Of a stretch of 28,420 nucleotides of DNA, positions 5,275 through 23,880 are shown in pieces. Both the position numbers and the translations under genes were made by a program. Source of the DNA: a phage; the NCBI GenBank assembly GCA_014816205.1, contig GCA_014816205.1_4096.1; one strand, given 5' to 3'. Position 1 is the stretch's first letter. The number at the start of each line of letters is the position of its first letter. Below the pieces are notes generated by a model. It had not been told where the DNA came from. It saw only the letters and a program-made list of their open reading frames with translations, and did no database searches.

Positions 5275-5363
5275 GATAAAACTCCTTAATTTAGGAGGGA
5301 GAACCATTTCCCCCTCTCTATGTAAAACATTATACTTGATTCTAAGTACTATGCAAGTACTTT
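5275..5363 (-). promoter_or_regulatory. PeSL-like cassette: promoter (TTGCAT...TATAAT), leader hairpin, RBS
   Basis: RC of atgcaa at 5351-5356 and attata at 5329-5334; GC-rich inverted repeat about 5296-5316. Confidence 0.5.
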
Positions 5364-5696
5364 TTACATTTTAATACCTGGATTCAGATAGCGGTGAGAA
5401 CCATATTCTGGATCGGTTTCGGTCCAGTACTGTAAATCGATAGTACCTTTCGCGTTAATCTTGTCTACCAGCTTATTCATCTTAGCGTATACTACGTCAG
5501 CATCGATGCGTTTAAAGCCAGTAGCTTTAGTGAAGTAGTAGTGATTTGCTTCACTATCATTAAGGATATACCGAGCACCGTTTGCAGTCTGTGCGATAAT
5601 GATTGAGTATTCTACTTCCCGATCCAGACCGTCGATGAATACAGATGAAACATTGGTACGGATGAAAGCTTTAACGATAGCGATTGAAGTACTCAT
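5364..5696 (-). CDS. hypothetical protein (110 aa)
   Basis: ORF track; AGGAG upstream of ATG at 5696. Confidence 0.6.
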   Translation of the reverse strand: MSTSIAIVKAFIRTNVSSVFIDGLDREVEYSIIIAQTANGARYILNDSEANHYYFTKATGFKRIDADVVYAKMNKLVDKINAKGTIDLQYWTETDPEYGSHRYLNPGIKM

Positions 5697-5844
5697 TTTG
5701 AATCTCCTAACTTTGTGGACCGTCGCACCATTGCCGCCCTACGAGATACATTATTGCAGTACTGATATACTTTGTCAATACTTTTTATTAATAGTTTTCA
5801 CTCCACCAGCAGATAGTTACTCACCGTTATTAACTATATATTTT

Positions 5845-5930
5845 AGATACACCTATGCACCCTGTGGGCTAGTTTTTGTCTATGCGTATATAATAGCAAA
5901 GGGACTGACCGGAGTCAATCCCTTTTTTAT
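5845..5930. repeat. composite intergenic repeat, copy 1 (19-nt motif + terminator hairpin)
   Basis: tgcaccctgtgggctagt about 5857-5874; hairpin gggactgaccggagtcaatccc 5901-5922 followed by tttttt. Confidence 0.6.
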
Positions 5931-5939
5931 TCTTTTTTG

Positions 5940-6140
5940 TTAGATGATTCTCCAATCTTCTACGATGATTGTAAGATACCGGACCAACGATTCTAGTGAT
6001 TCGTGTTCTCGATAGTCTGCCGCTCCACCAGCGGTACAAGTACAGCCGATTAAACCATTTTGCAATTCCTTAATCTGTACATCGATAAGGTTGGCTTTAG
6101 CTTCTTTCAGTACTTCAACCAGGGCGAGAGCGATAGACAT
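5940..6140 (-). CDS. hypothetical protein (66 aa)
   Basis: ORF track; GGAG upstream. Confidence 0.55.
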   Translation of the reverse strand: MSIALALVEVLKEAKANLIDVQIKELQNGLIGCTCTAGGAADYREHESLESLVRYLTIIVEDWRII

Positions 6141-6230
6141 AATGTTTTACTCCAAACTATTGGCGGGAGAACTATTCCCCCGCTCTATGTAAAACATTAT
6201 ACATTACTGGTTAGTACTGTCAAATAGTTT
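6141..6230 (-). promoter_or_regulatory. PeSL-like promoter/hairpin cassette
   Basis: Minus strand TTGACA, 16 bp, TATAAT, then hairpin GCGGGGGAATAGTTCTCCCGC. Confidence 0.5.
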
Positions 6231-6488
6231 TTATGAAATATCTTCGATGTAGTCGGCCCATTTCATTTTTTCAGTACTGTCAATTGCTACCGGATTATTT
6301 GGATCAAACCATTCACCATTACCGCAGTACATACCAACGGCAACGGTTTTATAGCCATCCTGGGCAGTACTCCACGCCATCGCACGATAGATATGGCCTT
6401 TAACTGGTTGCAGTACTGGTAACGTTTTATGGTCTTCTACGTAGGCCATAGCTTGAGGATTTACCCGATATTGTGTGAATTGTTCCAT
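6231..6488 (-). CDS. hypothetical protein (85 aa)
   Basis: ORF track 6231..6521 trimmed to ATG at 6488 with AGGGGA upstream. Confidence 0.55.
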   Translation of the reverse strand: MEQFTQYRVNPQAMAYVEDHKTLPVLQPVKGHIYRAMAWSTAQDGYKTVAVGMYCGNGEWFDPNNPVAIDSTEKMKWADYIEDIS

Positions 6489-6563
6489 GATGTTTCCCCT
6501 TGTAGTTAGTAAAGTTATCATATCAGTACTATCAAGCTATGTCAATAGTACTGAAATAAAACT

Positions 6564-6788
6564 TTAGATTAGATTATTGATGCCGTTGATGGTAGACTCG
6601 CTTTCTTCTTTCTCCCATTGGCGGTAGTACTTCCATGCTTCATGATATGTGGCGATTAGTTCATCTTTTTGATCCTGAGTACATGCCAGTACTGAATCAC
6701 GATGAGCGGTGTTATAGATAGAATCGAATGATTTCTTCTCTTCTGCCAGGTTAGCTACTTCCCGCATCAGTTCATCAAAGTTAGCCAT
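6564..6788 (-). CDS. hypothetical protein (74 aa)
   Basis: ORF track; AAGGAG upstream; starts MA. Confidence 0.6.
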   Translation of the reverse strand: MANFDELMREVANLAEEKKSFDSIYNTAHRDSVLACTQDQKDELIATYHEAWKYYRQWEKEESESTINGINNLI

Positions 6789-6852
6789 TTTAGTACTCCT
6801 TTTAGTGGGGGAGGATATCTCCCCCTATGCAAAACATTATACTTTGTTTTAG
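6789..6852 (-). promoter_or_regulatory. PeSL-like promoter/hairpin cassette
   Basis: Minus strand TTGCAA...TATAAT then hairpin GGGGGAGATATCCTCCCCC. Confidence 0.5.
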
Positions 6853-7119
6853 TTACTTTGCAAGTACTTTTTTCATATAAAGATTATATTCTACACCGCC
6901 GTAACCTTCTAAGATGATATGTTTTGCGTTATCACGTTTGCACATAGTGAAACCGTTGTTGATGTGTTCTGCATTTTCCAGGGCTACATCACCGATTGCA
7001 GCACATACAGCACTTACAACGGTATTCCGCAAAGTACTGGTATCATTAGCGGTCATAGTAGTTTGCAGTACTACGTTGTCGTATACGTGTGCATTGATAG
7101 TGATTTCGATAGTGTTCAT
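6853..7119 (-). CDS. hypothetical protein (88 aa)
   Basis: ORF track. Confidence 0.55.
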   Translation of the reverse strand: MNTIEITINAHVYDNVVLQTTMTANDTSTLRNTVVSAVCAAIGDVALENAEHINNGFTMCKRDNAKHIILEGYGGVEYNLYMKKVLAK

Positions 7120-7205
7120 GGTGTATCTCCCGGACTGGCGGGAGAACTATTCCCCCGCTCTATGTAAAACATTATACGTTAATCTAACTACAATGCAAGT
7201 ACTTT
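7120..7205 (-). promoter_or_regulatory. PeSL-like promoter/hairpin cassette
   Basis: gcgggagaactattcccccgc hairpin plus RC of TATAAT and TTGCAT. Confidence 0.5.
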
Positions 7206-7397
7206 TTAAATTTTATTTCCGATATAGTCCGGTCTATTCTTTTCGGTCATACGCTTTGCTAATGTTTGCATATGGCTTATTGCGTTTAATGTGTCTTCCT
7301 CCAGGGATGAATCAACATAATCAGGATCATTCTTAACCTTGCAATGGTTATGATAGCGTAGTACTGCCAGTACTTTTTTAACTTCTTCAACTGTCAT
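7206..7397 (-). CDS. hypothetical protein (63 aa)
   Basis: ORF track; ATGA overlap with 7394.. gene. Confidence 0.55.
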   Translation of the reverse strand: MTVEEVKKVLAVLRYHNHCKVKNDPDYVDSSLEEDTLNAISHMQTLAKRMTEKNRPDYIGNKI

Positions 7398-7666
7398 AAT
7401 AAGTATTCCACTTCGTTAGCTTTCAGGTTAGTATCAATCATCAGTGGATTTTTGTAGTTCACAAAACGATTAGTTTTCTCGATAGCGAATCCCATATAAT
7501 CCAGCTTACTAACAGTACATTCATTCTTAAAAACTTCTTTCGCTGCATTGATGGCTGATTCAATTGATAACCGACCATCTAAGTTAATGTTTCCAAATGA
7601 TCCACCAGCAGAAGTAGGATTACCGTTCATATCTTTAATGATCATAGTAGCGGAGTAGCTAGACAT
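7394..7666 (-). CDS. hypothetical protein (90 aa)
   Basis: ORF track. Confidence 0.6.
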   Translation of the reverse strand: MSSYSATMIIKDMNGNPTSAGGSFGNINLDGRLSIESAINAAKEVFKNECTVSKLDYMGFAIEKTNRFVNYKNPLMIDTNLKANEVEYLL

Positions 7667-7750
7667 AATTTTGTTTCCTTTTAGTATCGGGGAGAACTAT
7701 TCTCCCCTTGATGTAAACTATTATACAGTACTAAGATACTTTGTCAATAC
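7667..7750 (-). promoter_or_regulatory. PeSL-like promoter/hairpin cassette
   Basis: ggggagaactattctcccc hairpin; minus strand TTGACA, 16 bp, TATAAT; 3' part shared with cassettes at 10524 and 10795. Confidence 0.55.
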
Positions 7751-7972
7751 TTAATTACGTTTAAAATGATATGTGCCTTTATCATCCTGTACGCCCCATA
7801 CTGATTTACCATCAACACCAGTGAAACCGGATTGTAATTCAATATGGAAACCATTATTATCAACTACAAAAACTTTTTTATTTTCATCCCGATAACATTG
7901 ATATTCTGAATCAACATTAAAGGCCGCATCATTCAGAAGATTGGAAGCGTAAATGCAAGTCATTGTAGTCAT
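7751..7972 (-). CDS. hypothetical protein (73 aa)
   Basis: ORF track 7751..8047 trimmed to ATG at 7972 with AAGGA upstream; track N-terminus is the translated hairpin. Confidence 0.55.
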   Translation of the reverse strand: MTTMTCIYASNLLNDAAFNVDSEYQCYRDENKKVFVVDNNGFHIELQSGFTGVDGKSVWGVQDDKGTYHFKRN

Positions 7973-8107
7973 GATTTTATTCCTTATTGCCAGGGAGAAC
8001 CATTTCCCCCTCTCGATATAAAACATTATACTTGATTCTAAGTACAATGCAAGTACTTTTTATCAAATACTTTAAAATAGTTTTCAGTACTGAATACTTA
8101 TATAATA

Positions 8108-8197
8108 GATACACTTATGCACCCTGTGGGTCAGTGAGTTATCTCTCAATGAATATATATTAGCAAAGGGACTGACCGGAGTCAATCCCTTTTTTAA
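8108..8197. repeat. composite intergenic repeat, copy 2
   Basis: tgcaccctgtgggtcagtg 8118-8136; hairpin gggactgaccggagtcaatccc 8168-8189 plus tttttt. Confidence 0.6.
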
Positions 8198-8203
8198 TCT
8201 TTT

Positions 8204-8788
8204 TTATCGTGTTATAGTTACGGCTTTTACATCACGCTTTTTATAGTACTGATTCCAGATATTGCGGGTTAAACCGTAATCAAGTACTTTAATAAGTCCA
8301 TTACGATCCTGGCCGATATTCTGTTTTCTGATATCTCTTATCGTTAGTGTTGATAATGTATCATCGACGTGTTGTAGTGCATCAGCAAAGCGGTGCTGGC
8401 GTTCAATGGCATTACGTTTAATATTGTACTTTAATTCGTTGCACGCGTTAACGTGCTTCACACTGCCTTTACTTGCAGTACTCAACCGATCCATAACGAT
8501 AAACATATTATCAGGATCGCATAAATGCATATGCACCTTTGCAAAGTACTGTTTCAATTGAGGGCGGTCATAGTCTAAAAAATTCCATACCTTACATTCA
8601 GTTTCATTTTGTTCTACACCCGCATCACAATTGGCGACCTTAATCACTAACCGATCATTTAAAGCGAATACAATACGGGAAGAACCCGCACCGATGATCT
8701 CCAGACCAGCTAACCGACAAGCTGAAAGGATCTCTTTGTTGGTTTCCATTTCTGACAGGGTACGGATGAATTTAGTATAATTACGCAT
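8204..8788 (-). CDS. minimal protein-kinase-like protein (194 aa)
   Basis: ORF track 8204..8845 trimmed to ATG at 8788 with AAGGAG upstream; motifs IGAGSSRIVF (Gly loop), VIKVA (Lys), IRDIRKQNIG (catalytic loop), KVLDYGL (DFG-like). Confidence 0.55.
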   Translation of the reverse strand: MRNYTKFIRTLSEMETNKEILSACRLAGLEIIGAGSSRIVFALNDRLVIKVANCDAGVEQNETECKVWNFLDYDRPQLKQYFAKVHMHLCDPDNMFIVMDRLSTASKGSVKHVNACNELKYNIKRNAIERQHRFADALQHVDDTLSTLTIRDIRKQNIGQDRNGLIKVLDYGLTRNIWNQYYKKRDVKAVTITR

Positions 8789-9062: not shown

Positions 9063-9119
9063 TTTGTTTTCCCCGTGTTGGTATGTACATATAGTACTAA
9101 AACATTTGAGTACTGTCAA

Positions 9120-9338: not shown

Positions 9339-9391
9339 TTTGTTTCTCCCGTGTTGGTATGTGTACATAATACTAAAACAATTGAGTACTG

Positions 9392-9646
9392 TCAACGTGA
9401 TATTAGTTTTATTTTCTTATTATATTGTTGATGTTCATAAAGGTTTATCTTTCCTGTGTTCTCTATTACTATTCTGTTGTTAGTGTCTACATCGATTACA
9501 CGCAGTTTTCCGTTGCTTAACTTCCTTGGTAATAGGTTACCATTAATAAACTCATTAGCAAGCTGTACGGCCTTTGTGATGATTCTCTGTGGTGCTTTAT
9601 AGTGTACCCGCAAGATATTATCTTTAGATAGTTGTACCTTAATCAT
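9392..9646 (-). CDS. hypothetical protein (84 aa)
   Basis: ORF track; AGGAT upstream. Confidence 0.55.
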   Translation of the reverse strand: MIKVQLSKDNILRVHYKAPQRIITKAVQLANEFINGNLLPRKLSNGKLRVIDVDTNNRIVIENTGKINLYEHQQYNKKIKLISR

Positions 9647-9661
9647 TTTAGTTTATCCTAT

Positions 9662-9686
9662 AAAAAAGGCGGGAACTGATCCCGCC
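9662..9686 (-). terminator. rho-independent terminator
   Basis: Hairpin ggcgggaactgatcccgcc 9668-9686 followed on minus strand by TTTTTT; immediately downstream of 9709.. gene. Confidence 0.65.
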
Positions 9687-9708: not shown

Positions 9709-10104
9709 TTAGATAACCTGGCGGCGTTTACTGTATACTGTTACACGATTACCCTTACGGTCGTGTCGGATCTCTTTCTGGTTGCGTACCAGTTCACTTG
9801 GACGCTTAAGGTTTGCCAGGTGATCCGCGTGAGTCCAAGCGGTATGGTTTGTCTGTACTTTGATATCAGAATCAGCGATAAATTCATCTTGTGCGTTAAG
9901 TACTGCCGCCAGTAAATCCGCTCGTTTTAGTTCTGCTGCTGTTAGTACTGGCTCCGGTGAATTCACAATATCAGAGATTTCTTTGAACTGTACGGCCCAG
10001 CGTTGGCCTTTCGGTGCATCTTTGCCCATGTCTTTAAATGCTGCTCCTTCCTCGCGTGCAACAATACGGGCAGCTTCACGGGTAGCGTAGAATTTAGTAA
10101 TCAT
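9709..10104 (-). CDS. hypothetical protein (131 aa); paralog of 22751..23014
   Basis: ORF track trimmed to ATG at 10104 with AGGA 8 nt upstream; shares KFYATREAARI...FKDMG and RKGNRVTVY with 22751 gene. Confidence 0.6.
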   Translation of the reverse strand: MITKFYATREAARIVAREEGAAFKDMGKDAPKGQRWAVQFKEISDIVNSPEPVLTAAELKRADLLAAVLNAQDEFIADSDIKVQTNHTAWTHADHLANLKRPSELVRNQKEIRHDRKGNRVTVYSKRRQVI

Positions 10105-10199
10105 GGTATACATCCTATTAGTTAAGTTAGTACTACAAGTTAGAGTCTATTATAAAGTACTATCTGGGCAATGTCAAATAGTACTTTAAATGGATTCTA

Positions 10200-10523
10200 T
10201 TACATATCTTTCTTACGTTTTACATCGTAGTATCGAACTGTTATTTCTTTGTTAATCTCTTTTTCGATGCGGTGAATAACTTTTTCTTTCGGGTTGAAAC
10301 CTATAACGGTTTCTTTAATGATCTCCAAGCCCGTGTATTCGCCTTGTGTGCCGTAACCGTATGTAAAGGTTTCATGTCCCAGGTCTTCCCAACGATCACC
10401 AATTAACGCAGACACGTAGCAAGAGTGGTAAGTATTGCCGTGTGAATCAGTCCACCGATTAACTTTAATGTCAAAGGAGGTTACAATTTTCAGTTCTACT
10501 TTCTGGGCAAGGATCATAGCCAT
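10200..10523 (-). CDS. hypothetical protein (107 aa); paralog of 16617..16940
   Basis: ORF track trimmed to ATG at 10523; shares RWTDSxGNTYHSC and FTYGY and KRKKD with 16617 gene. Confidence 0.6.
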   Translation of the reverse strand: MAMILAQKVELKIVTSFDIKVNRWTDSHGNTYHSCYVSALIGDRWEDLGHETFTYGYGTQGEYTGLEIIKETVIGFNPKEKVIHRIEKEINKEITVRYYDVKRKKDM

Positions 10524-10616
10524 TTTTATTTCTCTCTCTTTGTTAGGAGGGGAACCGTTTCCCCTCACTTGATGTAAACTATTATACAGTACTAAGATAC
10601 TTTGTCAATACTTATT
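10519..10616 (-). promoter_or_regulatory. PeSL-like cassette, near-identical direct repeat of 10790-10886
   Basis: About 95 bp matching the cassette at 10790-10886 except in the hairpin arms. Confidence 0.6.
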
Positions 10617-10794: not shown

Positions 10795-10886
10795 TTTTAT
10801 TTCTCTCTCTTTGTTAGGAGGGGAACCATTCCCCCTCTCGATGTAAACTATTATACAGTACTAAGATACTTTGTCAATACTTAATT
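10790..10886 (-). promoter_or_regulatory. PeSL-like cassette, direct repeat of 10519-10616
   Basis: Minus strand TTGACA...TATAAT, hairpin GGGGAATGGTTCCCC, leader AACAAAGAGAGAGAAATAAAAATG. Confidence 0.6.
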
Positions 10887-11156: not shown

Positions 11157-11225
11157 TTTAATGTTTCCTTATCAGTGGTTGATGTAAGTATTATACTCGT
11201 TTACTTTCTATTGTCAAACTATTTT

Positions 11226-11298
11226 ATCAGGGGAGGTTTTCTTATGTCTTACTCCTGGACTACTTAACGGGGTTACTTGTTTCGTTCCCCGTCCTGAT
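11226..11298 (-). promoter_or_regulatory. structured leader element, copy 1
   Basis: Closing stem ATCAGG/CCTGAT enclosing hairpin ACGGGG...CCCCGT; sits between two tandem minus-strand promoters. Confidence 0.4.
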
Positions 11299-11379
11299 GT
11301 AAAACATTATACTTGATTCTAAGTACAATGCAAGTACTTTTTTAAAAATAGTTTTCAGTACTAGCCACCAGCAAACAAT

Positions 11380-11466
11380 AGATACATTTATGCACCCTGT
11401 GGGCTGATTTGTTTCTATGCGTATATAATAGCAAAGGGACTGACCGGAGTCAATCCCTTTTTCAAT
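11380..11466. repeat. composite intergenic repeat, copy 3
   Basis: tgcaccctgtgggctgatt 11391-11409; hairpin 11436-11457 plus ttttt. Confidence 0.6.
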
Positions 11467-12110: not shown

Positions 12111-12195
12111 TTTTCTTTCCTCTCAGTGGGGAGAATCATTTCTCCCCTTCATGTAACTTATTATACAGTACTATAATCTATTGTCAAATACTTTT
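12111..12195 (-). promoter_or_regulatory. PeSL-like promoter/hairpin cassette
   Basis: ggggagaatcatttctcccc hairpin; minus strand TTGACA...TATAAT. Confidence 0.5.
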
Positions 12196-12384: not shown

Positions 12385-12462
12385 TTTCATTTCCTCTTAG
12401 TAGGGGAAGATGTTTCCCCTTGATGTAAGTACTATAACACTACTGAAAACTAAATGCAAGTA

Positions 12463-12819
12463 CTATGATAAAATCATGATAGGATATTCACTATCGATCA
12501 GTACCTCGAATCCGAAACCTTCGTACCATTCTTTAAGATTGAAGGCGTTATCTTCTCCTGTATCGCATTCTAAAATGATACAATCTGAATCATCGGCGGC
12601 ATCAATAAAGGCATTCATTAATTCGTTACCTTCACCATTGCCCCGACTATCAGGATCAACATAAAGAGAATCAATAAACGCTACACGGTCATAATCAAGA
12701 TCCGGTGCAATGATTCCACGTTTAACAAACCAGTACTGCAATTGTGCTACTTTGCCCTGTACTTGATAACCAGTGATCTCGCCATTGTCAGTAGTACGCG
12801 TGATATGTTGTATTCCCAT
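12463..12819 (-). CDS. GNAT-family acetyltransferase-like protein (118 aa)
   Basis: ORF track; RGNGEG resembles the acetyl-CoA-binding motif and WYEGFGFE the C-terminal GNAT motif; GAGGA upstream. Confidence 0.5.
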   Translation of the reverse strand: MGIQHITRTTDNGEITGYQVQGKVAQLQYWFVKRGIIAPDLDYDRVAFIDSLYVDPDSRGNGEGNELMNAFIDAADDSDCIILECDTGEDNAFNLKEWYEGFGFEVLIDSEYPIMILS

Positions 12820-12882
12820 GATTTCTATCCTCAGTTAAGATATAAAACATTATACACTATCTTTCAGTACTGTCAATACTTT

Positions 12883-13140: not shown

Positions 13141-13471
13141 TATTTTAACCTCATTATAAAAATACTATAGTACTGTAATGCGACAATAATATTACTTGTT
13201 CTTACTTTTTCCAATCCACATGATACCACATATTCATCCCCATATGTGCGAAACGATACACCATGAAAATTTTTATACACTTGCACTACTAATCATAACC
13301 TTTCGTCTAACCAACTGCATAGAATTATACTACTTTACGCAAATTGATCAAGTATTGATCAGATCATTTTTTGATCAATATTATACAGTTACATTTGTGC
13401 ACCCTATGGGTTAGTGACGTTCTCGTCTTGATGTAAGTATTATGCCAGTACTGGATGATATTGTCAATAGA

Positions 13472-13918: not shown

Positions 13919-14017
13919 TTTATTTCTCTCTTAGGTTAAGTTAACTACTGTTTATAAAACTTATTATACAGTACTATCAAACGTTGTCAATATCTTTAAT
14001 AGTACTGGTAATATATT

Positions 14018-14197: not shown

Positions 14198-14289
14198 TTT
14201 TAATTCCTTAGTAGTGTAGTTGATAAAAGTTATTATGCCAGTACTATCAATCAGTGTCAATAGCTTTGATAGTACTGTGATAATATTTT

Positions 14290-14502: not shown

Positions 14503-14595
14503 TTTGTTTTCTCTCTGTTAGTGGGGAGAACTATTCTCCCCTTCATGTAAAACATTATACAGTACTATAATCTATTGTCAAACTATTTTTTAATA
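14503..14595 (-). promoter_or_regulatory. PeSL-like promoter/hairpin cassette (consensus example)
   Basis: Minus strand TTGACA, 16 bp, TATAAT, GTTTTACATGAAG, hairpin GGGGAGAATAGTTCTCCCC, then AGAGAGAAAACAAAATG. Confidence 0.6.
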
Positions 14596-14937: not shown

Positions 14938-15071
14938 GATTCGTTTCCTTATTACCAGGGGAAACCGTTTCCCCTTTCGATGTAAAACATTATACGCCTA
15001 TTGAGATAGTTTGCAAGTACTTTTTATCAAATACTTTAAAATAGTTTTCAGTACTCAAACATTATACAATA

Positions 15072-15160
15072 GATACACTCCTGCACCCTGTGGGCTAGTG
15101 AGCTATCTCTCAATGAATATATAATAGCAAAATGGCTGACCGAAGTCAACCACTTTTTTC
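15072..15160. repeat. composite intergenic repeat, copy 4 (variant hairpin)
   Basis: tgcaccctgtgggctagtg 15082-15100; hairpin tggctgaccgaagtcaacca 15133-15152 plus tttttt; arm changes preserve pairing relative to other copies. Confidence 0.55.
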
Positions 15161-15536: not shown

Positions 15537-15617
15537 TTTGTTTCTCCTGATAGTGGGGAGAATCATTTCTCCCCTTGATGTAAAACATTATACAGTACTG
15601 AAAACTAATTGCAAGTA
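15537..15617 (-). promoter_or_regulatory. PeSL-like promoter/hairpin cassette
   Basis: RC of ttgcaa 15609-15614 and attata 15587-15592 (16-bp spacer); hairpin ggggagaatcatttctcccc 15555-15574. Confidence 0.6.
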
Positions 15618-15764
15618 TTATTTTTTAGATTTACGCAAACTTTCTACCATCTCAGGAGTAAGGCCCGGCGGGTAGGAAACCACTTCATCAACGAAACGTA
15701 AAGGGAATACCCCAGCGAAAGGTGAACATGCTTTCTTAGTATTACTCTTTTTTGATGCTTTCAT
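15618..15764 (-). CDS. small basic protein (48 aa), absent from ORF track
   Basis: Hand translation: MKASKKSNTKKACSPFAGVFPLRFVDEVVSYPPGLTPEMVESLRKSKK; AAGGA upstream. Confidence 0.45.
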   Translation of the reverse strand: MKASKKSNTKKACSPFAGVFPLRFVDEVVSYPPGLTPEMVESLRKSKK

Positions 15765-15833
15765 TTCATATTCCTTAATTAGTGGGGAGTACTATTTCTC
15801 CCCTTCATGTAAAACATTATACAGTACTGAAAA
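15765..15833 (-). promoter_or_regulatory. PeSL-like promoter/hairpin cassette
   Basis: ggggagtactatttctcccc hairpin; same promoter module as 15537-15617. Confidence 0.55.
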
Positions 15834-16043
15834 CTAATTGCAAGTACTATTTGAAAGTAAATGCTCATACGCTGCATTAACTACATTTTCAATAACCGAC
15901 TGTACAGAAAGATCCCCCACGTCCTGGCTATAGTAGAAATTGCTTACAGTGGTGTCATCGTATGCAAATACTTTACCAGGTACGGCATCAATCACATACA
16001 TATTAACCTTTAAGATGTCGATCTTATCCTGTACAGTAAGCAT
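15834..16043 (-). CDS. hypothetical protein (69 aa)
   Basis: ORF track 15834..16157 trimmed to ATG at 16043; the track N-terminus overlaps a better gene in another frame. Confidence 0.5.
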   Translation of the reverse strand: MLTVQDKIDILKVNMYVIDAVPGKVFAYDDTTVSNFYYSQDVGDLSVQSVIENVVNAAYEHLLSNSTCN

Positions 16044-16616: not shown

Positions 16617-16940
16617 TTAAAGATCTTTTTTGCGTTTAACATTCTGTACAGTACAATGCAACGGGATATTAAGATCATTGCACAAACGATAGAGGGAGGT
16701 TTCAACAGTATCAAGCCCGTCTACTGATTCCTTTAAGAGTGATACCGCCGTTTGTTGATATGCATCCTCATAGCCATAAGTAAATGATTCAACCGCCAGA
16801 TCATTCAAGCCGTTATCCAGTTCAACGCTTACATGACAAGAATGATAAGTATTGCCATATGAATCAGTCCAACGTTTACCGTCAACATTGATTGCATGGA
16901 TTGCAGCCAGGGAAACGGTGTTGATGATAGTTTTAGCCAT
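16617..16940 (-). CDS. hypothetical protein (107 aa); paralog of 10200..10523
   Basis: ORF track; shared RWTDSYGNTYHSC and FTYGY and KRKKD motifs. Confidence 0.6.
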   Translation of the reverse strand: MAKTIINTVSLAAIHAINVDGKRWTDSYGNTYHSCHVSVELDNGLNDLAVESFTYGYEDAYQQTAVSLLKESVDGLDTVETSLYRLCNDLNIPLHCTVQNVKRKKDL

Positions 16941-16968: not shown

Positions 16969-17042
16969 GTCTTGATAAAATCTATTATGCCAGTACTATC
17001 AAACTATGTCAATAGTACTGTGATAATATTTTTACTTACTTT
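16969..17042 (-). repeat. about 74-bp direct repeat, copy A (promoter module)
   Basis: Identical to 17263-17336; contains RC of TTGACA and CATAAT. Confidence 0.65.
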
Positions 17043-17244
17043 CTTTTGATGCTTTATATGTTGCCACTGCCATAACCACATCAGCACGAACAAAGTTTTT
17101 AACCGTGTCAGTGTAGTAATTGATTGCATCGTCTACATCTGTGAACGTCCGATACATACCGCACCAAGATACTTTATAACCTTCTTTCACTTGTTCAAGT
17201 TTAACCAGTGTTTTGTTTACTTTAATTTTAGTAATGATAGCCAT
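17032..17244 (-). CDS. hypothetical protein (70 aa)
   Basis: ORF track. Confidence 0.6.
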   Translation of the reverse strand: MAIITKIKVNKTLVKLEQVKEGYKVSWCGMYRTFTDVDDAINYYTDTVKNFVRADVVMAVATYKASKESK

Positions 17245-17262: not shown

Positions 17263-17336
17263 GTCTTGATAAAATCTATTATGCCAGTACTATCAAACTA
17301 TGTCAATAGTACTGTGATAATATTTTTACTTACTTT
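17263..17336 (-). repeat. about 74-bp direct repeat, copy B
   Basis: Identical to 16969-17042; the two copies flank the 17032..17244 gene. Confidence 0.65.
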
Positions 17337-17469: not shown

Positions 17470-17554
17470 ATTAGTTTCCTTGTAGTGGGGAGAATCATTT
17501 CTCCCCTTGATGTAATGTATTATACTTTATTCGATTTACTTTGCAAGTACTTTT
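17470..17554 (-). promoter_or_regulatory. PeSL-like promoter/hairpin cassette
   Basis: ggggagaatcatttctcccc hairpin; RC of TATAAT and TTGCAA. Confidence 0.55.
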
Positions 17555-17782: not shown

Positions 17783-18231
17783 TTTTTAATTCCTATTCAG
17801 TAGTTGATGTATGTATTATGTCAGTACTTAAAACTATTGTCAAACTATTTTTTAAAATTTATCAATGATTGATGCCGTTTCATTGATAGTCTTGCCGTGT
17901 TTTGCACACGCGATAACTGCTTTAAATTCCTTTGATGACCAATCTTTCTTGCTGCATACTGACATTACTTGTAACGTGAAACAATCCAGTTCATAAGTAT
18001 TCATCTTTAAATCCTCAGTTAGTTAAGGTGTCTCGCCTTGATGTAATTAATTATACGCTAATCTCTTAATCGTGCAAGTACTTTTTATTACTTTTTGTAA
18101 AATACTTTAAACACTCTCAATCGCTTTCTAACGTCCTTAACGCCACCAGCTAGGGCAATGTATCAGATAATCAGTTTAATGCGTTAGAATCGATTCTAGG
18201 CGGTGCTAGTGGACTGGAATACTATAGACAC

Positions 18232-18258
18232 AAAAAAGCCCACTGTTTAAGGTGGGCT
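18232..18258 (-). terminator. rho-independent terminator
   Basis: Hairpin agcccactgtttaaggtgggct followed on minus strand by TTTTTT; directly downstream of 18280.. gene. Confidence 0.65.
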
Positions 18259-18878: not shown

Positions 18879-18965
18879 GTAATACATTCTACGCCTTTTT
18901 GTGGTAATGTCAACTACTATTTTAAAACTATTTTTAAAGTATGCAGTACTACGATAATACAAAAA

Positions 18966-18992
18966 CAAAAAAGCCCACTGTATAAGTGGGCT
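18966..18992 (-). terminator. rho-independent terminator (duplicate of the 18232 module)
   Basis: Hairpin agcccactgtataagtgggct followed on minus strand by T-run; downstream of 19010.. gene. Confidence 0.65.
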
Positions 18993-19309: not shown

Positions 19310-19393
19310 TTGATTATCCTTAGTTACCAGGGGGAACCGCTCCCCCTTGCGATGTAAAATATTATACAGTACTAAAAACTATTATCAAGTACT
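19310..19393 (-). promoter_or_regulatory. PeSL-like promoter/hairpin cassette
   Basis: gggggaaccgctccccc hairpin; RC of TATAAT. Confidence 0.5.
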
Positions 19394-19630
19394 TTATGAT
19401 TTTTTATAAAACATTTCGGCAGTGATATTTTTACCCGTTGGTTGTACTTTATCCAGAATTTTTTGATGCCCTGGCCGTCCAAATGAATATGATCCGTAAA
19501 CCGTAAACCAGTAGTTACCCTCAGTGTTTACATGTACAGCACAATAGGGAACGCCCCGCGATTCATCACTAGTAAAGTGTGATACCGTTCCCGTTACATT
19601 CGCAGACGTTGATTTGATTTGTTCGAGCAT
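19394..19630 (-). CDS. hypothetical protein (78 aa)
   Basis: ORF track. Confidence 0.6.
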   Translation of the reverse strand: MLEQIKSTSANVTGTVSHFTSDESRGVPYCAVHVNTEGNYWFTVYGSYSFGRPGHQKILDKVQPTGKNITAEMFYKKS

Positions 19631-19738
19631 TTTCTTATTCCTTAGTTACCAGGGGAACCGCTCCCCCTATGCAAAACATTATACGCGTTTAAAAACTAAT
19701 TGCAAGTATTTTAATAAAAAGTATTTGAAAAATAATTG

Positions 19739-19773: not shown

Positions 19774-19880
19774 ATAAAGACGATACAGTCACTAACCCAC
19801 AGGGTGCATAGATCCGTCTATTAAATGATTCAGTACTGAAAAAGTAACGGGGAGTTATTATCTCCCCGCGTTGTTATTTG
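19774..19880 (+). ncRNA. candidate small non-coding RNA (about 100 nt)
   Basis: Runs from the 19739 promoter to hairpin cggggagttattatctccccg (19848-19868) plus U-rich tail; contains the 19-nt motif; only a 4-codon ORF. Confidence 0.3.
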
Positions 19881-20095: not shown

Positions 20096-20179
20096 TGTAT
20101 TTTCCTCATTACCAGGGAGAACCATTTCTCCCCTCTATGTAAACTATTATACAGTACTAAAAACTAATTGCAAGTACTT
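20096..20179 (-). promoter_or_regulatory. PeSL-like promoter/hairpin cassette
   Basis: gggagaaccatttctccc hairpin; RC of TATAAT and TTGCAA. Confidence 0.5.
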
Positions 20180-20365
20180 TTAATTAAATTTTGTACCGTC
20201 CAGTAATGAAGCATTACGCATCATTCGCCCAGCACGATCCCAGCTAGTAGGATCGGGAATCCCTTGCAACTCGTTAGGGGAGATCTCAATCTTGATCCCT
20301 ACATTGATAACAGTCATTCCAGCCTTTGCAGCTTGCTCTCGGATAACCTCAGATAATGTTGTCAT
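20180..20365 (-). CDS. hypothetical protein (61 aa)
   Basis: ORF track 20180..20407 trimmed to ATG at 20365 with AGGAG 8 nt upstream; track M1 is a TTG. Confidence 0.55.
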   Translation of the reverse strand: MTTLSEVIREQAAKAGMTVINVGIKIEISPNELQGIPDPTSWDRAGRMMRNASLLDGTKFN

Positions 20366-20426
20366 GATTAAAGCTCCTGTATCGCTTATAATGTTTGTCA
20401 GTACCAATATAAAGTATTATACGCCT

Positions 20427-20639
20427 TTATTGCTTAGTGTCCAGTACTTTTAAAACATAATCAAAGACACCACGCACATCATTGATCATCGCCTGGCGGT
20501 TAGCAGGTAACGCATCAGGATCGCCACTATCCCAGGCATTAATAAAGCCACCTAAATCATGGAATACTTTATTCTGTAAGCCGATTAACTGTAATTCTTT
20601 TTCTTCAAGCTCTTTGATGCGGTCGATTAAATCACTCAT
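20427..20639 (-). CDS. hypothetical protein (70 aa)
   Basis: ORF track 20427..20675 trimmed to ATG at 20639 with GAGGATTATCTAATG context. Confidence 0.55.
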   Translation of the reverse strand: MSDLIDRIKELEEKELQLIGLQNKVFHDLGGFINAWDSGDPDALPANRQAMINDVRGVFDYVLKVLDTKQ

Positions 20640-20941: not shown

Positions 20942-21033
20942 TAGATAATCCTCAGTAAAGGCGGGAACTATTCCCCGCCTCGATATAAAGTATTATACGT
21001 TAATCTAACTACAATGCAAGTACTTTTTAAATT
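20942..21033 (-). promoter_or_regulatory. PeSL-like promoter/hairpin cassette
   Basis: gcgggaactattccccgc hairpin; RC of TATAAT and TTGCAT. Confidence 0.5.
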
Positions 21034-21300
21034 TTATAATCCTTTTACTGCATCAGGTGCGACTACGCCATCAATGTATTGAACATCGTTTTCCACTTCA
21101 CGGGCGGCATCATTCAGCAGATCAAAATTAAATTCCATTTCTTCCAGATCATCGAAATCAGGCTCATAACCATTAATTGTTGAATAAGTCCAAGTACCTT
21201 TTTCATAAGTTACGACACTTACATCAGGGAAGAAATCTTGCACATGATCCATCGCATCCCGAACCAATTGATGTGCAGTTGTGATATTTAAAGTTTTCAT
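21034..21300 (-). CDS. hypothetical acidic protein (88 aa)
   Basis: ORF track. Confidence 0.6.
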   Translation of the reverse strand: MKTLNITTAHQLVRDAMDHVQDFFPDVSVVTYEKGTWTYSTINGYEPDFDDLEEMEFNFDLLNDAAREVENDVQYIDGVVAPDAVKGL

Positions 21301-21393
21301 TTTGTTGCCCTTTTAGTGTGAGCGGGGAACCATTCCCCGCCTCGATATAAAGTATTATACGCTTTTAAACTTAGTTTGCAAGTACTTTTTGAA
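21301..21393 (-). promoter_or_regulatory. PeSL-like promoter/hairpin cassette
   Basis: gcggggaaccattccccgc hairpin; RC of TATAAT and TTGCAA. Confidence 0.5.
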
Positions 21394-22005
21394 TTAATAT
21401 TCGATTGATTCTACTACGCCATCAATAACATTGAATTGATACTCGTTACCCTCAATCAGTGCTACGATGTTTTCAGTAGTGAATTGATCCTCATATGCAT
21501 TCTCTAAATCACGGTACAACTTGCGTGACAATTCACGAATAGTTTCAGTGAGTAGTTCCTCAAGCTCATTAACTAACGTTTCTTGTTTTGCGGTTAAATC
21601 AGTGTAAGCCGATTCAATGTACCCGCTTACAGTGTTCTCATGCGAGTAGTGAGAGTGAGAACGCTTTACACTCATCGCCAAATCATCTTCATTCAGCAGG
21701 TGACGGATTGAGCGATACTTAGTTAATGCTCTTACCTTGCGTAAAAACTTCACTGCGTCAACGTGGTCAGTACTGATTGATGCACCGTCACCCTGGGACC
21801 AAAAACCACTGAATTGTATTTCAGCGTCATTAATGCCATATTCCGGTAGTACTGTTTCTTTATAGTATTCAATTTCACTTTCAGAAAAATAATCATCGTT
21901 TAAGTTTTTTTCACGTTCCCGAACCAGTTCGATAGCTGACGTTTTTTGTTCTGCGTTCAATTCAGAAAAAGCCATAACATAAGTAGTAGTAGTGATAGTT
22001 TTCAT
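21394..22005 (-). CDS. hypothetical protein (203 aa)
   Basis: ORF track; GAGGG 8 nt upstream; preceded by an unusually long multi-promoter leader. Confidence 0.65.
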   Translation of the reverse strand: MKTITTTTYVMAFSELNAEQKTSAIELVREREKNLNDDYFSESEIEYYKETVLPEYGINDAEIQFSGFWSQGDGASISTDHVDAVKFLRKVRALTKYRSIRHLLNEDDLAMSVKRSHSHYSHENTVSGYIESAYTDLTAKQETLVNELEELLTETIRELSRKLYRDLENAYEDQFTTENIVALIEGNEYQFNVIDGVVESIEY

Positions 22006-22073
22006 TTTGTAACCCTCATTCAGTAGTTGATGTAAGTATTATACGCTTTTAAAAACAATTGTCAAACTATTTT

Positions 22074-22147
22074 ATCAGGGGAGTTTTTCGTGTGCCTTAC
22101 TCCTGGGCTACTTAACGGGCAGTTACTTATTTCGTCCCCCGTCCTGA
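22074..22147 (-). promoter_or_regulatory. structured leader element, copy 2
   Basis: About 85% identical to 11226-11298, same closing stem ATCAGG/CCTGAT; again between two tandem promoters. Confidence 0.4.
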
Positions 22148-22230
22148 TGTAAAACATTATACGCCTTTAAACATAGTTTGCAAGTACTTTTTATCAAATA
22201 GTTTTCAGTACTGAATAGTAAAAAAAAGTA

Positions 22231-22259
22231 TTGACAGCACTATCCAGTACTGGTATAAT
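22231..22259 (+). promoter_or_regulatory. plus-strand sigma70-like promoter
   Basis: ttgaca 22231-22236, 17-bp spacer, tataat 22254-22259; two copies of the 19-nt motif downstream in opposite orientation. Confidence 0.45.
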
Positions 22260-22382
22260 ATACCCCATGACAACAGCTAACCCACCGGGTGCACAATTGT
22301 AACTGTACTAAACTACTTTTTCTATAGATACACTCCCGCACCCTATGGGCTACGGCTTATCTGCCAATGAATACATTATGCC

Positions 22383-22413
22383 AGTATTGACAAAATAAGT
22401 CAATACTGGCAAT
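22383..22413. other. perfect 12-bp-stem hairpin
   Basis: gccagtattgac aaaataa gtcaatactggc; stem contains TTGACT, which with CATAAT 17 bp away forms a minus-strand promoter-like site. Confidence 0.5.
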
Positions 22414-22433
22414 TGTAAAGATTTGTAAACTGA

Positions 22434-22664
22434 TTATACTGCAATCGCGTCCAGGCTATAATAATAATAAGTGCCGTATTGGTGTACTTTATTACCTTTT
22501 ATTTCAGTACTGAATGAATCCGAACGATTGGCATATGATGTTAATTTAAAGTACTTTGTTTTGCTGATACGTTGCCATACACCGCAGATCCGCTGTAAGT
22601 AAGTAGTTTTATTAGTGGTAGTATCTTTTACGGTTTTAACTTCAGTCATATACATATTGGTCAT
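22434..22664 (-). CDS. hypothetical protein (76 aa)
   Basis: ORF track; AAGGAG upstream. Confidence 0.6.
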   Translation of the reverse strand: MTNMYMTEVKTVKDTTTNKTTYLQRICGVWQRISKTKYFKLTSYANRSDSFSTEIKGNKVHQYGTYYYYSLDAIAV

Positions 22665-22750
22665 TTTTTTACTCCTTGCTTTAGTGGGGAACTATTCCCC
22701 ACCTGATATAAAGTATTATACGCGTTTAAACTTAGTTTGCAAGTACTTTT
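22665..22750 (-). promoter_or_regulatory. PeSL-like promoter/hairpin cassette
   Basis: ggggaactattcccc hairpin; RC of TATAAT and TTGCAA. Confidence 0.5.
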
Positions 22751-23014
22751 TTATAGTACTGCTATCTTTTTAGTACGGTACACGGTAACACGATTCCCCT
22801 TACGGTCGAGCTTTATTTCTACCACTCGACGCGATACACTAGCAGGACTTTTTAAAGCTGATAGCCAGTACTGTAATGATCTGGCTGTACTACGCTTTAC
22901 AATGGCCCAACGTTTACCACTTGCCGATCCCGCTCCCATATCTTTAAACGTTGCCCCGTCCTGGCGTGCGGCGATCCGAGCTTGTTCACGCGTCGCAAAA
23001 TACTTAATATTCAT
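22751..23014 (-). CDS. hypothetical protein (87 aa); short paralog of 9709..10104
   Basis: ORF track; shared FATREQARIAARQDGATFKDMG and DRKGNRVTVY motifs; AAGGG upstream. Confidence 0.6.
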   Translation of the reverse strand: MNIKYFATREQARIAARQDGATFKDMGAGSASGKRWAIVKRSTARSLQYWLSALKSPASVSRRVVEIKLDRKGNRVTVYRTKKIAVL

Positions 23015-23050
23015 GCTGTTACCCTTATCGTTGGTGTATGAATAAAATCC

Positions 23051-23073
23051 TATTATAAAGTACTATCACCGTG
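23051..23073. promoter_or_regulatory. palindromic operator-like site in promoter region
   Basis: Perfect palindrome agtactatcaccgtgatagtact just upstream of TATAAT; approximate coordinates. Confidence 0.35.
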
Positions 23074-23095
23074 ATAGTACTTTAAATCTATTCTA

Positions 23096-23335
23096 TTACA
23101 TTCCAACCATTGCAGCACGGATCGCCGTAGTGCTATACTTAAAGCCGTCCGGCGTTTTATCTTGTCCAGTCTGTTCTAAAAATAGCATCATATGACGGGC
23201 CGCATCATTGCGATTAGTGTTAGCGGCAATAAAGTCCTGGGCCAACCGGTATAATGATTCATCGTTATTAATCCAAAGGCTTACATTCCATTGAGTTTTG
23301 TTAGCGTGACCTAAGAACATTTTTGATTTAGCCAT
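23096..23335 (-). CDS. hypothetical protein (79 aa)
   Basis: ORF track. Confidence 0.6.
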   Translation of the reverse strand: MAKSKMFLGHANKTQWNVSLWINNDESLYRLAQDFIAANTNRNDAARHMMLFLEQTGQDKTPDGFKYSTTAIRAAMVGM

Positions 23336-23427
23336 TTTTTAATCCTCTTATATAGTGGGGAACTATTCCCCACCTGATGTAAAACATTATACGCTTTTAA
23401 ACTTAGTTTGCAAGTACTTTATTAAAC
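23336..23427 (-). promoter_or_regulatory. PeSL-like promoter/hairpin cassette
   Basis: ggggaactattcccc hairpin; near-duplicate of 22665-22750. Confidence 0.5.
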
Positions 23428-23790
23428 TTATTCGTAAATTTTGCCACTATCAGCCCATACCAGGAAACGAGGCATATTATCCCATGCATCTTGCTTTAAA
23501 TTTAAACCGTGTAATACTTCTGTACTTTCCATTCCTGGTACTGGTTTACTATACACCGCGAACAATTCACCCATATACTGATACGCCATCGTCAAATCAC
23601 TGGCGATCATCTTATGGATCATCGCATCAAGCATCACGGTAGCGGCGTATTGTTCACGCTTAAGCGGTAACATTGCAATAAGTTCCCGATAAGCTGAAAT
23701 GTGAATTTTTACCGTTTCTGCCGGAAGATCTTTCATCTCGTCGCGGAAGTTAACCAGGTTAGCAATAATTTTATTGATTTGAGTCGCCAT
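23428..23790 (-). CDS. hypothetical protein (120 aa)
   Basis: ORF track 23428..23847 trimmed to ATG at 23790; track N-terminus is the translated hairpin. Confidence 0.6.
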   Translation of the reverse strand: MATQINKIIANLVNFRDEMKDLPAETVKIHISAYRELIAMLPLKREQYAATVMLDAMIHKMIASDLTMAYQYMGELFAVYSKPVPGMESTEVLHGLNLKQDAWDNMPRFLVWADSGKIYE

Positions 23791-23880
23791 CGTTTTAATC
23801 TCTCTTAATGTGTAGCGGGAAGTGTTCCCGCTCTCGATGTAAAACATTATACGCTTTTAAACATAGTTTGCAAGTACTTT
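23791..23880 (-). promoter_or_regulatory. PeSL-like promoter/hairpin cassette
   Basis: gcgggaagtgttcccgc hairpin; RC of TATAAT and TTGCAA. Confidence 0.5.

Follow-up and report, generated by a model that had tools for sequence, protein, structure and literature searches.

A repeated promoter and leader-hairpin cassette in the direct terminal repeat of an Asteriusvirus-group phage

Results

Small Genes in a Direct Terminal Repeat

The DNA studied here, a 28,420-nt stretch of phage contig GCA_014816205.1_4096.1 (the window), carries on its minus strand many copies of a cassette in which a sigma-70 promoter is followed, in 23 cases, by a GC-rich leader hairpin. The best megablast match of the window is slurp01 (98% identity), which places it in the Asteriusvirus group (PBECO4, 121Q, slurp01), made up of jumbo coliphages with genomes of about 350 kb. 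The minus strand carries all plausible genes. Phage vB_Ec-M-J has an annotated direct terminal repeat (DTR) of 21,525 bp; the window was aligned to it, and the edges of the repeat were deduced for the present phage through this homology (window 25493 down to approximately 4440):

4440–25493, minus strand: direct terminal repeat, edges approximate

DTRs of about 20 kb have been determined with PhageTerm in phages fEgEco12 and fENko-Kae01, and in fEgEco12 also by restriction digests (PMC13070987, PMC11218385). According to a first-ATG gene model, the present repeat of about 21 kb holds approximately 52 small genes with a median length of 81 aa. The median intergenic gap is 86 bp within the DTR versus −4 bp (that is, gene overlap) outside it; the cassettes described below are therefore a matter of DTR architecture. 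Among the DTR genes, a GNAT acetyltransferase and a DksA/TraR zinc finger were recognized above the Pfam cut-off and a kinase match below it, and a scan for tRNA and transfer-messenger RNA genes returned nothing. Small genes provided with strong promoters and ribosome-binding sites are thus found inside a terminal repeat, and the DTR resembles an early "host-takeover" block, its early timing being an assumption.

A Repeated Promoter-Plus-Hairpin Cassette

A search for TATAATGTTTTACAT allowing up to three mismatches gave 35 matches (30 of them on the minus strand), versus 4.8 ± 2.0 in shuffled sequences. Independent repeat-finding returned families of 16–22 copies, 50–97 nt long, which span the hairpin, the −10 box, the spacer and the −35 box. 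Approximately 41 near-consensus sigma-70 promoters (TTGACA or TTGCAA, mostly a 16-bp spacer, TATAAT) are present on the minus strand; their hexamers score 12/12 or 10–11/12 against the consensus and every one lies on the coding strand. A canonical GC hairpin with a stem of 6–10 bp, a loop of 3–8 nt and a folding energy of −10.6 to −16.7 kcal/mol accompanies 23 of these promoters, beginning 9–15 nt past the −10 box and ending 11–23 nt ahead of the ATG. When the promoter is defined more loosely, promoter and hairpin occur together 24 times on the minus strand and never on the plus strand. The same one-strand bias is repeated in eight related loci, with 143 cassettes and about 60 distinct hairpins. 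The promoter-plus-hairpin repeat is real, non-random and well delimited. Its 23 copies in the window are the following:

5275–5364, minus: canonical cassette; −10 at 5329–5334, predicted start 5321, hairpin 5295–5316, ATG 5274
6141–6231, minus: canonical cassette; −10 at 6196–6201, hairpin 6163–6183, ATG 6140
6789–6871, minus: canonical cassette; −10 at 6836–6841, hairpin 6807–6825, ATG 6788
7120–7206, minus: canonical cassette; −10 at 7171–7176, hairpin 7138–7158, ATG 7119
7667–7755, minus: canonical cassette; −10 at 7720–7725, hairpin 7689–7707, ATG 7666; duplicated in vB_Ec-M-J and G17
7973–8060, minus: canonical cassette; −10 at 8025–8030, hairpin 7992–8011, ATG 7972
10524–10616, minus: canonical cassette; −10 at 10581–10586, hairpin 10547–10566, ATG 10523; full AACAAAGAGAGAGAAATAAAA leader
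10795–10885, minus: canonical cassette; −10 at 10850–10855, hairpin 10818–10837, ATG 10794; full AACAAAGAGAGAGAAATAAAA leader
12111–12195, minus: canonical cassette; −10 at 12160–12165, hairpin 12128–12147, ATG 12110
12391–12466, minus: cassette with a degenerate −10 (TATAGT) and a 17-bp spacer; −10 at 12431–12436, hairpin 12402–12420, ATG 12390
14503–14589, minus: canonical cassette; −10 at 14554–14559, hairpin 14523–14541, ATG 14502
14938–15024, minus: canonical cassette; −10 at 14989–14994, hairpin 14957–14975, ATG 14937
15537–15622, minus: canonical cassette; −10 at 15587–15592, hairpin 15555–15574, ATG 15536
15765–15851, minus: canonical cassette; −10 at 15816–15821, hairpin 15784–15803 (6-bp stem, 8-nt loop), ATG 15764
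17470–17554, minus: canonical cassette; −10 at 17519–17524, hairpin 17487–17506, ATG 17469; 95–96% identical copy in W70 and A73
19310–19396, minus: canonical cassette; −10 at 19361–19366, hairpin 19329–19347, ATG 19309
19631–19713, minus: canonical cassette; −10 at 19678–19683, hairpin 19650–19669, ATG 19630
20096–20181, minus: canonical cassette; −10 at 20146–20151, hairpin 20114–20133, ATG 20095
20942–21027, minus: canonical cassette; −10 at 20992–20997, hairpin 20958–20981, ATG 20941
21301–21389, minus: canonical cassette; −10 at 21354–21359, hairpin 21321–21341, ATG 21300
22665–22750, minus: canonical cassette; −10 at 22715–22720, hairpin 22683–22703, ATG 22664
23336–23421, minus: canonical cassette; −10 at 23386–23391, hairpin 23354–23374, ATG 23335; duplicated around an extra gene in vB_Ec-M-J
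23791–23881, minus: canonical cassette; −10 at 23846–23851, hairpin 23814–23832, ATG 23790

A cassette is about 85–95 bp long and most DTR genes own one. Its parts follow a fixed order: an AT-rich tract (AAAAAGTAC or AAAATAG) that precedes the −35 box, the sigma-70 promoter, a conserved start region (GTTTTACAT, with the A of CAT as the predicted start), the hairpin in the 23 cases listed, an unstructured A-rich leader with a Shine-Dalgarno (SD) sequence, and the ATG, often followed by GCU or AAA as the next codon. Identical hairpins recur, for instance GGGGAGAA-ATGA-TTCTCCCC, found four times. One promoter (−10 at 25106) carries a different hairpin and three (−10 at 22161, 11311 and 18891) carry a long leader.

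An initial annotation of this DNA had described more than 25 copies of the cassette between 5275 and 23880. These limits agree with the first and last canonical cassettes, and the count holds for the promoter while being slightly generous for promoter plus hairpin. The leader sequence that it gave (AACAAAGAGAGAGAAATAAAAATGGCT, GAGAGAGA) is present in full, but only twice (10586 and 10855). A spacer ending in AGTACTG was found in about 11 TATAAT promoters as well as in the GCATAAT class, the CAGTACTG spacer end being that of a minority of promoters. As for the statement that many genes begin with Met-Ala, this applies to 11–13 of the roughly 52 DTR genes, versus none of 27 outside the repeat.

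The Hairpin Is Most Likely a Base-Paired Leader Structure in RNA

In E. coli, transcription starts 6–9 nt past the −10 box, with a pyrimidine preferred at −1 and a purine at +1. The −10 box of the cassette is followed by GTTTTAC-A-T, and the variants retain the pyrimidine-A step at positions 7–8; by these rules the predicted +1 is the A of CAT, and the hairpin would extend from approximately +2 to +28 of the transcript. As it begins 9–15 nt past the −10 box, it lies beyond any plausible start site. A terminator scan found a T-tract after none of the 23 canonical hairpins, while four true terminators nearby passed the same scan. Judged by sequence, the hairpin is a leader element and not an intrinsic terminator, a reading that we rejected for this element; its assignment to the 5′ untranslated region (UTR) by the initial annotation is upheld. 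The −10 box lies 22.8 ± 1.3 nt ahead of the loop center, and the ATG follows that center by 29.1 ± 2.6 nt; the hairpin is thus positioned more tightly relative to the promoter than to the start codon. Among the 30 strongest minus-strand GC hairpins, 19 directly follow a cassette promoter; the remainder includes true terminators and a separate hairpin/promoter element, and no promoter-less hairpin of the cassette family was found among these 30. The hairpin is always tied to the promoter.

Covariation was analyzed on an alignment of 60 distinct hairpins from nine loci, with the loop-closing pair as register and the loops replaced by a placeholder. The inner six pairs are paired in all 60 hairpins and both-side changes occur at 10 of the 11 stem pairs. 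The covariation score is 0.394, versus 0.196 ± 0.013 in shuffles (none of 500 reached it) and at most 0.19 in slid registers, so the covariation analysis that the initial annotation had proposed supports a base-paired structure. In the inner six pairs, non-Watson-Crick cells comprise 26 G·U and no A·C, which fits pairing in sense-strand RNA rather than in duplex DNA. Upon folding of the predicted 5′ ends, the hairpin was part of the minimum-energy fold in 11 of 12, and most of the SD/AUG region was unpaired in most folds.

Orthologous cassettes in five relatives were then compared part by part, with the following divergence:

−10 box: 1.3%
upstream A-tract: 1.8%
stems: 3.6–3.8%
neighboring coding sequence: about 5%
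leader: 6.3%
spacer: 6.4%
initial transcribed region: 7.6%
loop: 16.7%

The −10 box and the upstream A-tract are the best-conserved parts. A conserved stem together with a loop that is free to change fits a structural role and does not fit loop-specific recognition. Taken together, the hairpin is a selected base-paired structure on the transcribed strand, most likely acting in RNA.

Known RNA elements were also considered. Rfam returned no family at gathering thresholds for the whole window, nor at E ≤ 1 for 4300–25800, where there were chance-level matches only. A boxB/nut element of the lambda type was discarded, the loops being 3–8 nt long, varied and the fastest-evolving part, with no Rfam family matched. 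An RNase III site was discarded on general grounds, stems of 6–10 bp being far below the substrate length known for this enzyme. The stem is not generally extended by pairing between the 5′ tail and the bases that follow it; the single case among the cassettes, recognized by eye, is a bulged 3-bp extension at cassette 5334.

In some loops (AATGG or AATGA) there is an ATG that shares the reading frame of the gene downstream, as at window 5307, 15566, 20125 and similar positions. ORF (open reading frame) calling consequently starts genes within the leader hairpin (5307 instead of 5274, 15566 instead of 15536, 20125 instead of 20095), and N-terminal over-extensions of this kind may also be present in the annotations of related genomes.

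Homology Junctions Concentrate in Cassettes

No relative covers 80% or more of the DTR in one aligned piece. When the junctions of homology blocks shared with five relatives were mapped, 24 of 37 fell in cassette intervals, which make up 18.9% of the DTR (binomial p ~1e-9, in a test designed after the outcome of a first, cruder one had been seen). The junction offsets cluster in two places: at the 5′ edge of the cassette, +27 to +35 relative to the −10 box, and in the stretch from the −10 box to the ATG. Several events can be read from the alignments. In vB_Ec-M-J and G17, an extra gene lies between two copies of the 7725 cassette, and the aligned blocks overlap on 7654–7752; an extra gene of vB_Ec-M-J lies between duplicated cassettes in the same pattern at 23339–23418. 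The window in turn has an extra gene plus promoter between repeats at 17042–17238. G17 also shows a deletion whose ends lie 9 nt upstream of one −10 box (12445) and 12 nt upstream of a second one (12866). The cassettes thus mark in these comparisons where gene-sized insertions, deletions and replacements begin and end. The copies are similar to one another over tens of bases and would therefore offer portable homology, which is the mechanism that we infer.

Two pairs of paralogous small genes were observed within the DTR (10200–10523 and 16617–16940; 9709–10113 and 22751–23014), both members of the former having the motif W/TDSxGNTYHSC. Such pairs are consistent with duplication and shuffling of gene-plus-cassette units.

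The Cassette in Other Phages

Salmonella phage Munch and Klebsiella phage fENko-Kae01 have the same type of cassette in their terminal repeats; their genomes have only about 29% nucleotide identity with those of Asteriusvirus. Cassette copies with 95–96% identity are present in W70 and A73 (Vequintavirinae), and in W70 a homologous gene adjoins; the small Vequintavirinae subgroup concerned comprises W70, A73, A7_1, A5-4, LTH01 and UPEC06. The layout of promoter, leader hairpin and SD also occurs elsewhere in W70 and in Mooglevirus Sf14. The version of W70 itself (AAAAGTAGTTGAC..., GTAAATT, ACATCA, GGCGGGG-loop-CCCGC, AAAGAGA, ATGGCT) is 76% similar to the cassettes of Sf14, where units consisting of promoter, CATCAAC, GC hairpin and SD alternate with true units of the promoter-early stem-loop (PeSL) kind discussed below.

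Asteriusvirus DTRs and a few Vequintavirinae share, at 83–96% identity, a block of some 1.6 kb that contains four small genes together with their cassettes (W70, locus L004, approximately 6200–7800), with shorter matches in Phapecoctavirus and Justusliebigvirus records. The AGTACT sites of W70 are confined to this block. Sharing of this kind indicates that unrelated phage families have recently exchanged early genes.

AGTACT Is in Excess Beyond the Cassettes

The palindrome AGTACT is the commonest hexamer of the window, with 156 copies, 17 times the expectation from composition, often in the form (C)AGTACT(G). In cassettes it is either fused to the −35 box (AAAAGTACTTGCAA) or abuts the −10 box (CAGTACTG-TATAAT). 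The initial annotation had explained the excess as a by-product of the cassette. This explanation fails: 49 copies are in cassette intervals, and the other 107 are outside, 48 of them in DTR coding sequence (in all three frames) and 39 in other non-coding DNA. There are 20 in 25494–28420 and none in 1–4439, and sharp local deserts exist. The density is about 6 per kb over the DTRs of five relatives, distant genera included, with an overall range of 3–7 per kb. Over most of the 47 kb preceding the right repeat of vB_Ec-M-J it is still about 3 per kb (approximately 9 times expectation), rising over the last 5 kb or so. With most sites outside cassettes and enrichment beyond the repeat, the excess of AGTACT is a property of the DNA of this phage group.

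Two known protein sites were compared with it and rejected. The consensus for SlmA binding, GTGAGTACTCAC, requires G, T, A and G at positions 1, 2, 4 and 5 and a purine at position 3 (PMC3020112); no match to GTRAGYRCTYAC was found, the commonest flank placing C at position 3. For a LexA box, the second half-site is missing upon inspection by eye.

Other Promoters, Leaders and Terminators

Apart from the 23 cassettes, the DTR contains the following elements:

25062–25128, minus: cassette-type promoter TTGACA-16-TATAAT (GTTCTACAT) with an AT-richer 9-bp hairpin at 25062–25086
22076–22183, minus: cassette promoter with a long structured non-coding leader; −10 at 22156–22161, second promoter at 22038–22065
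11205–11333, minus: cassette promoter with a leader of about 75 nt; −10 at 11306–11311, second promoter at 11190–11217
18886–18913, minus: promoter TTGACA-16-TAGAAT with a long leader, a variant of the 11311/22161 type
16984–17012, minus: hairpin-less promoter class (AGTACTATTGACA, 17 bp ending in AGTACTGG, CATAAT)
17278–17306, 17815–17843, 14232–14260, 13439–13467 and 22375–22403, minus: further copies of the CATAAT class
13963–13990, minus: consensus promoter without leader hairpin
12849–12876, 10149–10177, 20416–20443 and 18050–18077, minus: further hairpin-less consensus promoters
9367–9395, 9091–9119, 6517–6545 and 5750–5778, minus: further hairpin-less consensus promoters
9668–9686, 18972–18992, 18237–18258 and 19847–19869, minus: canonical intrinsic terminators (GC hairpin and T-tract)
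5898–5925, 8165–8192, 11433–11460 and 15129–15156, minus: four-copy hairpin/promoter element

The promoter at 25062–25128 is the cassette-type promoter nearest the inferred genome end, about 390 bp inside. The non-coding leader of approximately 75 nt lies between two promoters (11205–11298 and 22076–22148, minus strand; also in W70, locus L004, approximately 7700–7790). At 11311 it folds closed, with its first 6 nt paired (AUCAGG...CCUGAU; ΔG −19.1, z = −2.4). The sequence is conserved between its two copies in the window and also in W70, an unrelated phage, and is a candidate for a small RNA or a structured leader. In the four-copy element, a hairpin with a 12-bp stem (AAAGGGATTGAC-TCCG-GTCAGTCCCTTT) includes in its 5′ arm the −35 box of a TTGACT-17-(TG)TATTAT promoter; the element is annotated as a terminator in UE-S1 and G17.

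Further repeated sequences were noted. A perfect 13-bp inverted repeat at 22379–22411 (TGCCAGTATTGAC-N7-GTCAATACTGGCA) has a TTGAC −35-like element in each arm, that of the minus strand being the −35 box of the TTGACT-17-CATAAT promoter at 22375–22403. The motif CCCACAGGGTGCAT is present in nine copies, versus about one expected, in both orientations (minus strand: 5855–5868, 8117–8130, 11390–11403, 13397–13410, 15081–15094 and 22336–22349; plus strand: 19796–19809, 22281–22294 and 24400–24413). Eight of the nine start about 22–29 nt past the −10 box of a sigma-70-like, extended −10 promoter, and no promoter was identified upstream of the copy at 24400–24413. The motif may mark short non-coding transcripts or a regulatory site. 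The outermost 1.6 kb or so of the DTR (23900–25500, minus strand) shows no convincing ORF and is crowded with short repeats (GGACGGCTAAACGGCTAGAT variants at approximately 24600–24720), AGTACT sites and divergent promoters; this region may have a role in packaging or terminus recognition. Immediately upstream of the right terminal repeat and on the opposite strand, about 14 paralogous RCC1-like ("regulator of chromosome condensation") genes stand in tandem (vB_Ec-M-J, locus L010, 23207–40768; 121Q, locus L008, 1–5256).

Discussion

Both repeated early-promoter modules that mediate gene shuffling and 5′ hairpins on phage messages are already known. We found no literature on the present cassette in Asteriusvirus, RaK2-like, rV5-like or fENko-Kae01-type phages, in a search whose coverage is incomplete and which is not proof of absence. 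The initial annotation had called the cassette PeSL-like. PeSL cassettes were described in the T4-type phages RB49/phi1, PST/T4 and nt-1/KVP40 (Arbiol et al., 2010, PMC2839356; Comeau et al., 2014, PMC4122927). With them the present cassette has in common that it is a repeated intergenic module of about 60–100 bp in which a strong sigma-70 early promoter, with its AT-rich tract, is combined with a GC stem-loop, an SD and a start codon, that it is concentrated among small ORFans in a hyperplastic region, and that it lies at insertion, deletion and replacement junctions between close relatives. As regards setting, the name is therefore appropriate, 24 of the 37 junctions being in cassettes. As regards anatomy it is not. 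The PeSL stem-loop varies among five positions, none of them beyond the start site: it may precede the −35 and −10 boxes, lie between them, overlap them or come just ahead of the start site. It has been shown to terminate transcription (PMC2839356, PMC4122927), whereas the present hairpin occupies one fixed position past the −10 box, inside the transcript, in all 23 copies, lacks a T-tract and cannot efficiently terminate transcription from its own promoter. The cassette also belongs to a different host lineage (Asteriusvirus and relatives), and the array fills a terminal repeat. Recombination between neighboring PeSL copies also gives encapsidated mini-circles. Given the mismatch in anatomy, we do not file the cassette as PeSL and consider it a variant of the same general kind. 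The four-copy element (5898–5925 and its equivalents), the hairpin of which overlaps the −35 box, does have PeSL anatomy.

The leaders of ompA, papA and T7 gene 10 bear 5′-terminal stabilizing stem-loops, the one of T7 gene 10 being GGGAGACCACAACGGUUUCCC (GGGAGACC...GGUUUCCC). By analogy, they appear to be the closest counterparts of the cassette hairpin in function. In both, a highly expressed message opens with a short GC hairpin whose 5′ arm is rich in purines, and an unstructured leader with a strong SD comes next. Unlike the cassette hairpin, these stem-loops begin 0–4 nt from the 5′ end, the tail predicted here being 2–7 nt. References for stabilizing 5′ stem-loops are listed in PMC3997798. 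The folding energies, the presence of the hairpin in 11 of the 12 predicted leaders and the covariation together characterize it as a stable 5′-UTR stem-loop.

With respect to the setting, the pre-early region of T5, which lies in its terminal repeat, is a similar case. The T5 promoter PN25 reads TATAAT-AGATTC-A+1-TAAATTTGAGAGAGGAG; it resembles the cassette in that an A-rich tract lies upstream of consensus hexamers, that transcription starts at the A of CAT and that the leader is purine-rich (GAGAG), and differs from it in that the initial transcribed region of PN25 has no hairpin. Phage SPO1 has a long terminal repeat of small early genes, with promoters and ribosome-binding sites typical of high expression (PMC6873191). 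The present DTR is likewise a long terminal repeat filled with small early genes, if their early timing is granted. SPO1 genes, by contrast, are grouped in operons, and no repeated leader hairpin is mentioned in PMC6873191.

We lean, with reserve, towards a reading in which the DTR is an array of small genes each with its own cassette, the hairpin serves as a 5′ stabilizer or insulator and the cassette serves as a recombination linker. The most likely function of the hairpin itself would be to stabilize or insulate the 5′ end of early mRNAs. It could hinder decay that depends on the 5′ end, keep the folding of the leader independent of the downstream gene and, in read-through transcripts, block 3′ exonucleases.

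Several points weigh against this reading. The start site is a prediction from sequence only, and if it is the A of CAT, then 2–7 unpaired nucleotides, mostly five, would precede the hairpin. Classical 5′-terminal protection reportedly needs a stem almost at the 5′ end (Emory, Bouvet and Belasco, in 1992). RNase E readily bypasses simple stem-loops orthogonal to its path (PMC9943677), which makes a stabilizer role uncertain. About 18 promoters of the same array have no hairpin. The covariation score of 0.394 is inflated both by a register anchored on detected hairpins, in which G·U was allowed, and by copies that are paralogues; an unbiased count of mismatches gave 9 G·U versus 4 A·C or C·A, a modest excess, with the A·C and C·A cases at the periphery of the stem. 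Regarding recombination, the cruder first junction test, based on ORF-defined intergenic DNA, placed 15 of 40 junctions there versus 29% expected (p = 0.17), a result for which we think that the gene model is to blame, stops overlapping the cassette A-tract and ORF starts being mis-called in loops. Junctions at gene boundaries are moreover expected for any viable gene-level mosaic, by selection for intact genes.

Other explanations of the hairpin have to be weighed against a stabilizer or insulator. The one to which we give most weight, while still regarding it as unlikely, is that the hairpin is a site for an RNA-binding protein or nuclease of phage or host acting on all early messages, for instance by repressing their translation, or by targeting them for decay, at the switch from early to middle expression. 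In T4, RegA and RegB act on early mRNAs in such a manner. The uniform position in 23 leaders, the nearly invariant top of the stem (GGAA/UUCC), conservation in distant genera and a 5′ tail of 2–7 nt, which suits pure 5′-end protection poorly, would all agree with such a site. The loop, however, is the fastest-evolving part (16.7% divergence, 3–8 nt), the lower stem is free to vary with compensation, many stems lack GGAG, and no candidate protein has been identified. The hairpin might also be a functionless passenger of a cassette that spreads and is homogenized by duplication and recombination. Cassette copies are clearly related by descent, identical hairpins recur and approximately 18 promoters do without one; we nonetheless hold this improbable in view of the compensatory changes, of stems that evolve more slowly than the flanking leader and of a loop that evolves four times as fast as the stem, as well as of the persistence of the element across genera at about 29% nucleotide identity.

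Less weight still goes to a terminator or attenuator of transcription arriving from upstream, like the stem-loops of RB49/phi1. PeSL stem-loops ended transcription in a reporter (PMC2839356), ARNold calls a terminator in G17 for the orthologue of 20958–20981, which is followed by TTT, and true terminators are few among the 41 or so promoters. None of the 23 hairpins has a T-tract, though, and the region employs canonical T-tract terminators where needed. Efficient termination would also abort the transcript of the cassette's own promoter at about +25; in that place, downstream of its promoter, an efficient terminator would be self-defeating. The least probable of the alternatives, in our judgment, is that the inverted repeat acts as DNA, be it as operator for a dimeric repressor at +2 to +28, as cruciform or as recombinase target. 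The lac operator lies at +1 to +21, and a palindrome at this classical operator position, together with the concentration of junctions in cassettes, would suit such a role; the authors of the PeSL work speculated on GGGG...CCCC stems as targets of recombination proteins. Against this, the outer stem changes on both sides with complementarity kept, which an operator does not require, the inner-stem mismatches are G·U, a pair only in RNA, and the spacing between the arms varies from 3 to 8 nt.

Beyond the stabilizer or insulator reading, a bolder proposal may be put forward, to which we give less credence than to a general protein-recognition site and more than to a passenger. The hairpin could be the recognition element of a dedicated phage factor, which together with AGTACT would constitute a two-part on/off code for the roughly 50 DTR genes; separately, the cassette could be a plug-and-play unit that carries ORFans from one family of virulent enterobacterial phages to another, unrelated one.

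The jumbo phages of this group are being proposed for therapy, although over 80% of their genes lack a known function. The approximately 50 DTR genes are the most variable of all, each apparently an independent and strongly expressed unit. Swapping of such units at a shared linker, even with other phage families, would explain the turnover of the "host-takeover" repertoire. The in-frame ATGs of the loops, which mislead ORF callers for several genes, constitute an annotation hazard, and the cassette in turn provides a simple handle to find and catalogue genes of this type in other genomes. The leader hairpin, fixed in position, lends itself to tests of early-mRNA biology, and expression design can use it as a ready-made part.

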